Positions 19,806-20,090 of a stretch of DNA of 64,000 nt are shown piece by piece. Position numbers and translations under genes: made by a program. Source of the stretch: an uncultured Leptospirales bacterium (GTDB lineage: Bacteria; Spirochaetota; UBA4802; UBA5368); contig CAZVEG010000001.1 in the NCBI GenBank assembly GCA_964625625.1, positions 29,657 to 93,656 of the forward strand, given 5' to 3'. Every line of letters starts with the position of its first letter. Position 1 is the first letter of the stretch. The notes under the pieces were generated by a model. That model searched no databases. It worked only from the letters and a program-made list of their open reading frames with translations, and was not told the origin of the DNA.

Positions 19806-19830
19806 AAACGACGACATGTTCAATTTTTTC

Positions 19831-19861
19831 TTGACACTGGCGGCGGAGGGGCGGCTATACT
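19831..19861 (+). promoter_or_regulatory. promoter TTGACA-19-TATACT driving the glycine riboswitch and gcv operon
   Basis: A perfect -35 and a near-consensus -10; the spacer is long. Confidence 0.4.
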
Positions 19862-19867
19862 CAGCCT

Positions 19868-20090
19868 GGATCGCAGGAGAGACTCCGCTCGCACGGGAGC
19901 GCCGAAGGGGCAAGTCCTTATAACAATGGATGAAACTCTCAGGCAAAAGGACTGTGTTCCATCGACATCCTGGAGAGTCCCGGCCAGCACGGGCACCGAA
20001 GGCTATAAATCCCCCGGGCGGGGATAATATCTCAGGTAGAAAGACAGGAGGAAGGCGCGTTGCAAGACCGTCTTCCTTTTTTTATTTCCG
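19868..20090 (+). promoter_or_regulatory. tandem glycine riboswitch (two aptamers) with a terminator expression platform
   Basis: Aptamer 1: GGAGAGAC..GCGCCGAAGGGGCAA..ACUCUCAGGCAAAAGGAC. Aptamer 2: CUGGAGAGUCC..CACCGAAGG..CUCAGG..AAGACAGG. A 9-bp hairpin AGGAAGGCG/CGUCUUCCU plus UUUUUUUAUUU follows at 20046..20085. Confidence 0.75.

Follow-up and report, generated by a model that had tools for sequence, protein, structure and literature searches.

A predicted tandem glycine riboswitch with ON-type control of a glycine-cleavage and lipoylation operon in an uncultured Spirochaetota lineage

We analyzed a stretch of 64,000 nucleotides (nt) from an uncultured Leptospirales bacterium (contig CAZVEG010000001.1), referred to here as the window, and found at 19825-20090, ahead of a set of glycine-cleavage genes, an RNA element of the glycine riboswitch family RF00504. 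In our reading, to which we assign a probability of about 0.88, this element is a tandem glycine riboswitch with its own promoter and terminator that places an eight-gene glycine-cleavage and lipoylation operon under glycine-ON control. A sequence-only reading had proposed such a switch at this locus, and all the features that it listed were found where it had placed them. As judged from the sequence, the element would follow the tandem transcriptional ON arrangement best studied in gcvT of Bacillus subtilis. It is a textbook riboswitch, and its value lies in the annotation of a promoter, a 5' end and a regulatory logic in an uncultured Spirochaetota lineage; it would also be a natural example of a tandem glycine ON switch without a kink-turn and without a convincing P5 pseudoknot.

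The mechanism that we propose is the following. A sigma-70-type promoter (about 19821-19861) would start the transcript at roughly 19868, and two glycine-binding aptamers would form from its first ~185 nt. The P1 helix of aptamer 2, with 5-7 pairs, is weak; as long as glycine is lacking, the pyrimidine run further downstream would capture the 3' strand of this helix, the hairpin at 20046-20080 would form, and the RNA polymerase would stop at the U tract, ahead of the first gene. Once glycine is bound and the two aptamers have docked, 20045-20051 would stay in P1 of aptamer 2, the hairpin would lose six basal pairs, and two unpaired C would lie between the weakened stem and the U run. The polymerase would then read on into the genes for a flavoprotein, gcvT, gcvH, gcvPA, gcvPB, lipA and a split lipoate ligase, and the operon would thereby supply both the glycine-cleavage system and the enzymes that lipoylate its H protein.

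The family assignment comes from a cmscan search of the whole window against Rfam 15 (4227 families), in which the gathering score of RF00504 is 32 bits. Four matches reached the gathering level: two transfer RNAs (tRNAs) near 62.4-62.6 kilobases and two RF00504 matches on the + strand. The two glycine-riboswitch units claimed from the sequence are thus both present, each above the score required by the family, and their parts, with helices given in base pairs (bp), are listed below.

19864-19964, + strand: glycine aptamer 1, RF00504 at 67.3 bits, E = 7.7e-12, full model (positions 1-94)
19868-19876 with 19952-19960, + strand: aptamer 1 P1, 9 bp
19883-19886 with 19896-19899, + strand: aptamer 1 P2
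19901-19910 with 19936-19944, + strand: aptamer 1 P3/P3a
19914-19917 with 19928-19931, + strand: aptamer 1 P3b
19961-19965, + strand: inter-aptamer linker, short and variable, ~5 nt
19966-20051, + strand: glycine aptamer 2, RF00504 at 39.8 bits, E = 1.4e-4, model positions 7-88
19966-19972 with 20045-20051, + strand: aptamer 2 P1, five invariant pairs (UCCUG/CAGGA), an A-G mismatch and a C-G pair
19979-19982 with 19990-19993, + strand: aptamer 2 P2
19995-20004 with 20029-20037, + strand: aptamer 2 P3/P3a
20009-20014 with 20020-20025, + strand: aptamer 2 extended P3b

The GGAGAG motif is found at 19876-19881 in aptamer 1 and at 19973-19978 in aptamer 2, and the further aptamer motifs CGCCGAAGG and CACCGAAGG, as well as CUCAGGCAAAAGGAC and CUCAGGUAGAAAGACAGG, are also present. 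Both aptamers possess the A-rich internal loops, which are invariant, and both keep the C-U dinucleotide of the consensus CUCUCAGG (C19938-U19939 and C20031-U20032), in which the C forms a G-C pair (G19908-C19938 in aptamer 1 and G20002-C20031 in aptamer 2). According to their alignment with U81/U179 of B. subtilis (PMC7161355), U19939 and U20032 are the putative glycine-contacting uracils. The two aptamers are separated by 1 nt as Rfam matches and by about 5 nt when their helices are considered, and a single expression platform comes after them; the published maximum separation of tandem aptamers is 32 nt (PMC6944388). The lengths of the P1 helices, 9 bp in aptamer 1 versus 5-7 bp in aptamer 2, fit the P1 asymmetry reported for tandem glycine riboswitches (PMC5066625). 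Among the relatives of the window, the P3b stem of aptamer 2 is retained and its loop is variable.

To this we can add the pattern of base changes among ten leaders, including those of the distant relatives L111 and L112, which were scored on the aptamer structure of the Rfam alignment. Standard pairs are formed in 91.8% of the cells, compared with 35-50% when the partners are slid by 1-3 columns. Four pairs show compensatory changes on both sides, and of these, three belong to P1 and one to P2 of aptamer 1; the observed pairing was matched by 1 of 500 shuffles and the covariation score by 3 of 500. Since related sequences may beat shuffles without any structure, we count the covariation as support added to the Rfam scores and not as independent proof. 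The closest clade by itself is uninformative in this respect, its sequences being 90% identical, and L111 and L112 were needed. The tandem model RF03166 (glycine-GGAnGA) aligns with the whole unit end to end (positions 1-177), which shows the tandem architecture despite a score under that variant's cut-off. Membership in the variant itself was rejected: the score is 75.1 bits in the window and 67-75 bits in the relatives, against a gathering score of 110, and the window has the canonical GGAGAG and CUCUCAGGC.

Immediately downstream of the second aptamer lies the expression platform.

20046-20087, + strand: intrinsic terminator, stem 20046-20057 with 20069-20080, three upper pairs and a GCAA loop

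A 9-bp hairpin followed by a U7 run had been described here. The U7 run stands (20077-20083, then AUUU), and the figure for the hairpin has to be corrected: its core comprises 8 bp (20050-20057 with 20069-20076, one G-U included), followed by a bulged C, three pairs and the GCAA loop, and it is extendable by four A-U/G-U pairs down to 20046-20080. The energy of the hairpin is about -17.5 to -18.0 kcal/mol, and that of the core by itself is -14.6 kcal/mol. Six bases, 20046-20051, are common to the 3' strand of aptamer 2 P1 (20045-20051) and to the base of the terminator stem, so that folding confirms the mutually exclusive antiterminator pairing on which the proposed switch depends. When 20045-20051 are withheld, the remnant hairpin has an energy of -7.3 kcal/mol and two unpaired C precede the U run. 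With both aptamers enforced, the full-terminator state is favored by 5.3 kcal/mol over the one that combines P1 with the remnant hairpin, a preference that, in the folding model, would correspond to the OFF bias expected without ligand.

The register of this overlap is the same in all the leaders compared. In 11 of 11, which span flavoprotein identities from 99% down to 57%, the 5' strand of the terminator starts one base inside the CAGGAGG of aptamer 2 P1. The upper stem and loop of the terminator are unrelated between clades (GCGCGUUGCAAGACCGU, CUGAUGAGGAUCAUCG and UGAAUAAUUGCGAUUUG); in L111, L112 and L089 a wholly different upper stem stands on the same terminator base AGGAGGAAGG, and the shared bases pair more strongly, with CCUC replacing CCUU. 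The G20055-U20071 pair becomes A-U in three relatives, and the G-U pair also changes to G-C. A register shared by 11 leaders supports what appears to be an antiterminator design. In the published model of tandem ON switches that precede aminomethyltransferase genes, the role of antiterminator falls to P1 of aptamer 2 (PMC7161355; PMC5666159), and the P1/terminator overlap described here would be the classic glycine-ON transcriptional design. The earlier assignment to this class is consistent both with the P1/terminator competition and with the catabolic genes downstream. An extension of aptamer 2 P1 through the linker into 20052-20057 gains 3-4 of the six extra pairs per lineage, inconsistently, and we mention it as a possibility only.

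The promoter is located directly upstream of the first aptamer.

19821-19836, + strand: -35 element, hexamer TTGACA (19831-19836) with an A/T-rich UP-like tract CAATTTTTT
19856-19861, + strand: -10 hexamer TATACT, 19 nt downstream of the -35 hexamer

Both hexamers had been pointed out from the sequence, and they are conserved in the relatives, with the 19-nt spacer kept at the same length across the window clade. In L081, L083 and L088, the UP-like/-35 element is 94-100% identical to that of the window and the -10 hexamer 83-100%, and the spacer sequence only 37-68%; the -10 variants of the relatives (TATACT, TATGCT and TATATT) occur at the spacing of the window. The elements TTTTTTCTTGACA / TTTTTTTATTGACA of the UP/-35 region are retained in the distant L111, L112 and L001/L089, and even in L085, whose aptamers are gone. 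Considering the usual ~7-nt spacing from a -10 hexamer that ends at 19861, we infer that transcription starts at about G19868/G19869. This position coincides with the first base of aptamer 1 P1, and consequently no 5' leader would be available for a P0 helix. A consensus scan that allowed spacers of 16-18 nt called no promoter at the locus because the 19-nt spacer exceeds that range. By hand count, the spacer appears to be 16-17 nt in L111 (about 1720-1760), L112 and L001/L089 (about 2712-2745 in L089), whose promoters have the UP-like T tract and the TTGACA of the window.

The contigs that carry the closest homologues of the flavoprotein, the product of the first gene of the operon, show the same synteny as the window. 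Upstream of the flavoprotein gene, both RF00504 aptamers reach the gathering level in the 99% clade (L091 and L092), and only the first aptamer is listed at this level in L081, L083 and L088 (the 80%, 78% and 74% clades), where RF03166 spans both units end to end. In L111 and L112, with 57-58% protein identity, the tandem unit is complete, and its promoter and terminator are homologous to those of the window. A pattern scan of metagenomes returned 17 matches, of which 12 fall by chance in coding DNA and five are true relatives: L093, L101, L104 (identical to window), L105 and L107. No riboswitch was found in L110, L113, L002, L003, L007 and L048; a regular-expression search for the aptamer motifs found none in 80 genome loci, and Rfam at gathering level found none in 11 of those.

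The identity to the window in L081, L083 and L088 varies with the part compared:

Flavoprotein gene third codon positions: 51-56%
Inter-aptamer linker: 33-50%
Aptamer 1: 74-82%
Aptamer 2: 88-94%
Terminator: 89-97%

As these values indicate, both aptamers and the terminator of the window clade evolve under strong purifying selection.

Other lineages have departed from this organization. L085 and L087 (72% protein identity; 7805-7930) retain the -35 region and, of the terminator, the 3' half and the U run; in place of the -10 hexamer and both aptamers they have about 90 nt of unrelated sequence, which forms a long hairpin ending in the former terminator strand. The replacement in L085 has no Rfam match even at E <= 1 and an unremarkable fold; it may act as a constitutive attenuator or as a regulatory RNA of unknown type. 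In L089, L001 and L090 (59%; 2754-2939 in L089, with an identical leader, and thus one distinct sequence), the promoter and the terminator are kept and the aptamer-1-like unit scores 26.3 bits, below the threshold of 32. The core of L089 is altered, with GGGAAA for GGAGAG, CUACAAGG for CUCUCAGG, ACAAGG, and GAAC for GGAC; non-standard pairs occur around the binding site, and of the second aptamer just the 3' half is left, next to an intact terminator. Such a leader may represent either a decaying switch or a variant. The relative L081 (7695-7922) has CGAGAG for GGAGAG in aptamer 1, whose score is lower at 57.6 bits, and GUUGAACGAC in place of GUAGAAAGAC in aptamer 2. Taken together, the degraded or variant aptamer of L089 and the full aptamer replacement in L085, with promoter and terminator kept, suggest that the leader is evolving fast.

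Between the terminator and the first gene there is a further leader, and it is here that control at the level of translation has to be considered.

20084-20156, + strand: untranslated leader, 73 nt, with a UCCCG/CGGGA hairpin and a Shine-Dalgarno (SD)-like GGGAGGU at 20110-20116

The idea would be that control is mainly or additionally translational, exerted through the hairpin, the GGGAGGU and an 11-codon frame that runs from TTG at 20125 to TGA at 20158-20160, where its stop overlaps the ATG of the flavoprotein gene. This leader, about 60% identical overall among the relatives, does contain conserved blocks; its SD-like sequence is strong and lies 40 nt before the actual ATG, the SD of the true start codon being weak. 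The frame ends on a TGA overlapping the ATG in L081 and L088 as well, and a 9-nt insertion preserves it. However, the frame is interrupted by early stops in L083 and L093, and L111 and L112 lack the region, for which reasons a conserved upstream reading frame was rejected. The latter two leaders carry the riboswitch with only about 20 nt after the terminator. In addition, the fold of the post-terminator leader is no better than that of shuffles (z = 0.10), and the aptamers make no contact with it. We therefore regard translational control as improbable compared with glycine-ON control by the terminator.

Several observations weigh against this transcriptional ON reading and deserve to be considered together. 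Aptamer 2 exceeds the RF00504 threshold by just 7.8 bits. Only two of the six shared bases (G20050 and G20051) lie in the G+C-rich core of the terminator; the partners of the other four are the first bases of the U tract. When P1 is shortened to 4 bp, it can coexist with a nearly complete terminator in a fold that was computed to be slightly more stable (-56.3 kcal/mol). The promoter spacer of 19 nt is longer than the usual 16-18 nt. The leader-linker P0 helix with its kink-turn is absent, although its disruption abolishes regulation in B. subtilis (PMC5666159). Duplex energies for the P5 pseudoknot do not improve on those of shuffled loops (fraction 0.22-0.76), and the relatives do not retain the pairing. 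In L081, aptamer 2 has CCCAGG for CUCAGG, which changes the presumed glycine-contacting U to C, and sister lineages have degraded or replaced their aptamers, so that the switch is dispensable in some relatives. Given the marginal advantage of the shortened-P1 fold and the two-base overlap with the core, the competition between P1 and the terminator is narrow, confined to the basal pairs and probably decided kinetically.

The points that concern aptamer 2 could be accommodated by a switch with a single binding site, in which aptamer 1 would be the main glycine sensor and aptamer 2 would act mostly as a scaffold and antiterminator helix, itself binding little or no ligand, as in a type-1 singlet with its ghost aptamer. 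The gap between the scores of the two aptamers, the non-standard pairs in P1 and P3a of aptamer 2, the CCCAGG of L081 and the second aptamer of L089/L001, reduced to its 3' half with the terminator kept, all lean in this direction, as does the published observation that, in ON switches preceding aminomethyltransferase genes, conservation is lower at binding site 2 than at site 1 (PMC7161355). Nevertheless, aptamer 2 passes RF00504 and keeps GGAGAG, CACCGAAGG, the C-U of CUCAGG and the A-rich internal loop, and its sequence, the most conserved part of the leader in this comparison (88-94%), is constrained well past the needs of a bare helix. A single-site switch is in our opinion unlikely, and we prefer a tandem of two glycine-binding aptamers. 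The losses in sister lineages and the small overlap with the terminator core could also be taken to mean that the element is a decaying relic without regulation, or an OFF switch. We consider this very improbable: the aptamers and the terminator are under strong purifying selection in the window clade, the geometry of the competition between P1 and the terminator leads to ON and not to OFF, and the regulated genes are catabolic.

The genes controlled by the predicted switch, and their neighbors, are the following.

Ends at 19805, + strand: endonuclease V (nfi), upstream neighbor
20157-21491, + strand: flavoprotein, 444 aa (Pfam Pyr_redox_2, Pyr_redox, Pyr_redox_dim)
21488-22576, + strand: gcvT, aminomethyltransferase (TIGR00528 at 384.9 bits, cut-off 235.85)
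22648-23040, + strand: gcvH (Pfam GCV_H)
23042-24367, + strand: gcvPA
24420-25871, + strand: gcvPB (Pfam GDC-P / GcvP2_C, listed jointly for gcvPA and gcvPB)
25859-26716, + strand: lipA
26713-27015, + strand: small lipoate-ligase subunit, 100 aa (Lip_prot_lig_C)
27015-27842, + strand: catalytic lipoate-ligase subunit
After 27842, convergent: HD-domain gene, which closes the eight-gene unit

The location upstream of a gcv operon, as first described, holds in substance, except that the first gene is not a gcv gene: it encodes a flavoprotein resembling NADH oxidases (Nox) and coenzyme A (CoA)-disulfide reductases (CoADR), and gcvT is the second. The eight genes are tightly packed, and their order is the same in L081, L083 and L085. 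The start of gcvT overlaps the stop of the flavoprotein gene by ATGA, which suggests translational coupling, and AAGGAGG lies upstream of gcvT; lipA and the genes for both lipoate-ligase subunits have overlapping stop and start codons. Because gcvT, gcvH, gcvPA and gcvPB catabolize glycine, an operon of this kind downstream fits the logic of an ON switch. With lipA and the split lipoate ligase in the same operon, lipoylation of the H protein would be induced by glycine jointly with gcv.

In three relatives, the operon lies beside an oxygen-defense cluster on the - strand upstream (570-5796 in L081, 1939-5917 in L083 and 1421-5383 in L085), with rubrerythrin, desulfoferrodoxin, cytochrome bd oxidase subunits and rubredoxin, and a flavodiiron-type protein in L081 only (4636-5796). 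In the window, an alpha/beta hydrolase is encoded at 17527-18669, upstream of the operon. The two tRNA genes mentioned above are adjacent (62418-62569, - strand; 66.3 and 58.8 bits), and both have a CAU anticodon in the Rfam alignment; they could be an initiator and an elongator tRNA for Met, or Ile2.

The flavoprotein that opens the operon binds, according to its type, flavin adenine dinucleotide (FAD) and NAD(P), and its best solved relatives are NADH oxidases and CoA-disulfide reductases; it scores under every NCBIfam equivalog cut-off. Classical dihydrolipoyl dehydrogenase has a CxxxxC disulfide, and the flavoprotein has instead a single cysteine, Cys43 (HPCGIPY), invariant in 32 homologues. 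Its close homologues are nearly all named as Spirochaetota metagenome-assembled genomes (MAGs), and the matches listed by a scan of genome contigs are mostly distant homologues, including CoADR genes of Bacillus. Homologues with at least 35% identity adjoin gcv, lipA or lipoate-ligase genes in Spirochaetota, where theirs is the first gene of the operon, in Desulfobacterales, where it follows gcvPB, and in archaeal MAGs (Iainarchaeum, Methanosarcinales, Thermoplasmata and Woesearchaeota). The loci in question are the window, L001, L005, L008-L014, L016, L020, L048, L081-L092 and L110-L113.

It is possible, and we propose it tentatively, that the switch controls a self-contained module in which the flavoprotein is a non-canonical L protein that re-oxidizes the dihydrolipoyl H protein. 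Such an enzyme would form a mixed disulfide with Cys43, to be resolved by the second lipoyl thiol. The proposal that the flavoprotein is the missing fourth component of glycine cleavage is an idea drawn from gene neighborhood alone, and it is strengthened by the predicted glycine-riboswitch control and by the ATGA overlap with gcvT. We found no description of a Nox-type L protein in the literature that we searched. Control by glycine would link an uncharacterized Nox/CoADR-like subfamily to glycine cleavage and makes an alternative L-protein role directly testable.

With respect to the composition and phylogeny of the host, the element had been singled out as lying in a high-GC genome; the guanine-plus-cytosine (GC) content is about 57%, which is not remarkable, nor unusual in itself for the glycine riboswitch class, and the relatives of the host are Spirochaetota. 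Our literature search found nothing on glycine riboswitches in spirochaetes, a silence that is weak evidence of novelty because the class is very widespread.

Of the features of typical tandems, one is absent and another is not supported. No leader-linker P0/kink-turn was found, the linker being variable among the relatives and without a conserved GA; the P0/kink-turn columns of RF03166 fall on 19861-19863, ahead of the inferred start, with a non-standard pair. According to published data, 28-39% of tandems and roughly one third of ON switches have a canonical kink-turn (PMC7161355). The P5 pseudoknot has been reported in 87% of ON switches upstream of aminomethyltransferase genes, and its candidate in the window clade would join the P3b loop of aptamer 1 to the bases directly behind aptamer 2, pairing CCUU (19916-19919) with AAGG (20052-20055).

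Compared with known systems, the element differs from the gcvT riboswitch of B. subtilis in lacking the P0/kink-turn, apparently any 5' leader and a convincing P5 pseudoknot, in having a linker of only about 5 nt and a terminator overlap mostly in the pairs at the start of the U tract, and in the operon itself, which starts with a Nox/CoADR-like flavoprotein, includes lipA and the lipoate-ligase genes, and belongs to a host whose relatives are Spirochaetota; the 19-nt promoter spacer also sets it apart from the model systems. The VCI-II RNA of Vibrio cholerae and the tandem of Fusobacterium nucleatum share with it the core motifs and the A-rich internal loops of the inter-aptamer contacts, which are invariant in the leaders compared here, whereas these RNAs have a canonical kink-turn (PMC7161355) and differ in expression platform and regulated genes. 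The leaders of L089/L001 resemble a step towards the type-1 singlet with a ghost aptamer, unlike that of the window, which has two complete aptamers over the threshold. As in RF03166, the window has two glycine-type aptamers in tandem, with the canonical core instead of that of the variant. With B. subtilis gcvT the element shares two tandem RF00504 aptamers, a long P1 first and a short P1 second, an aptamer 2 P1 that competes with the terminator, and the regulation of glycine cleavage genes (PMC5666159, PMC7161355).

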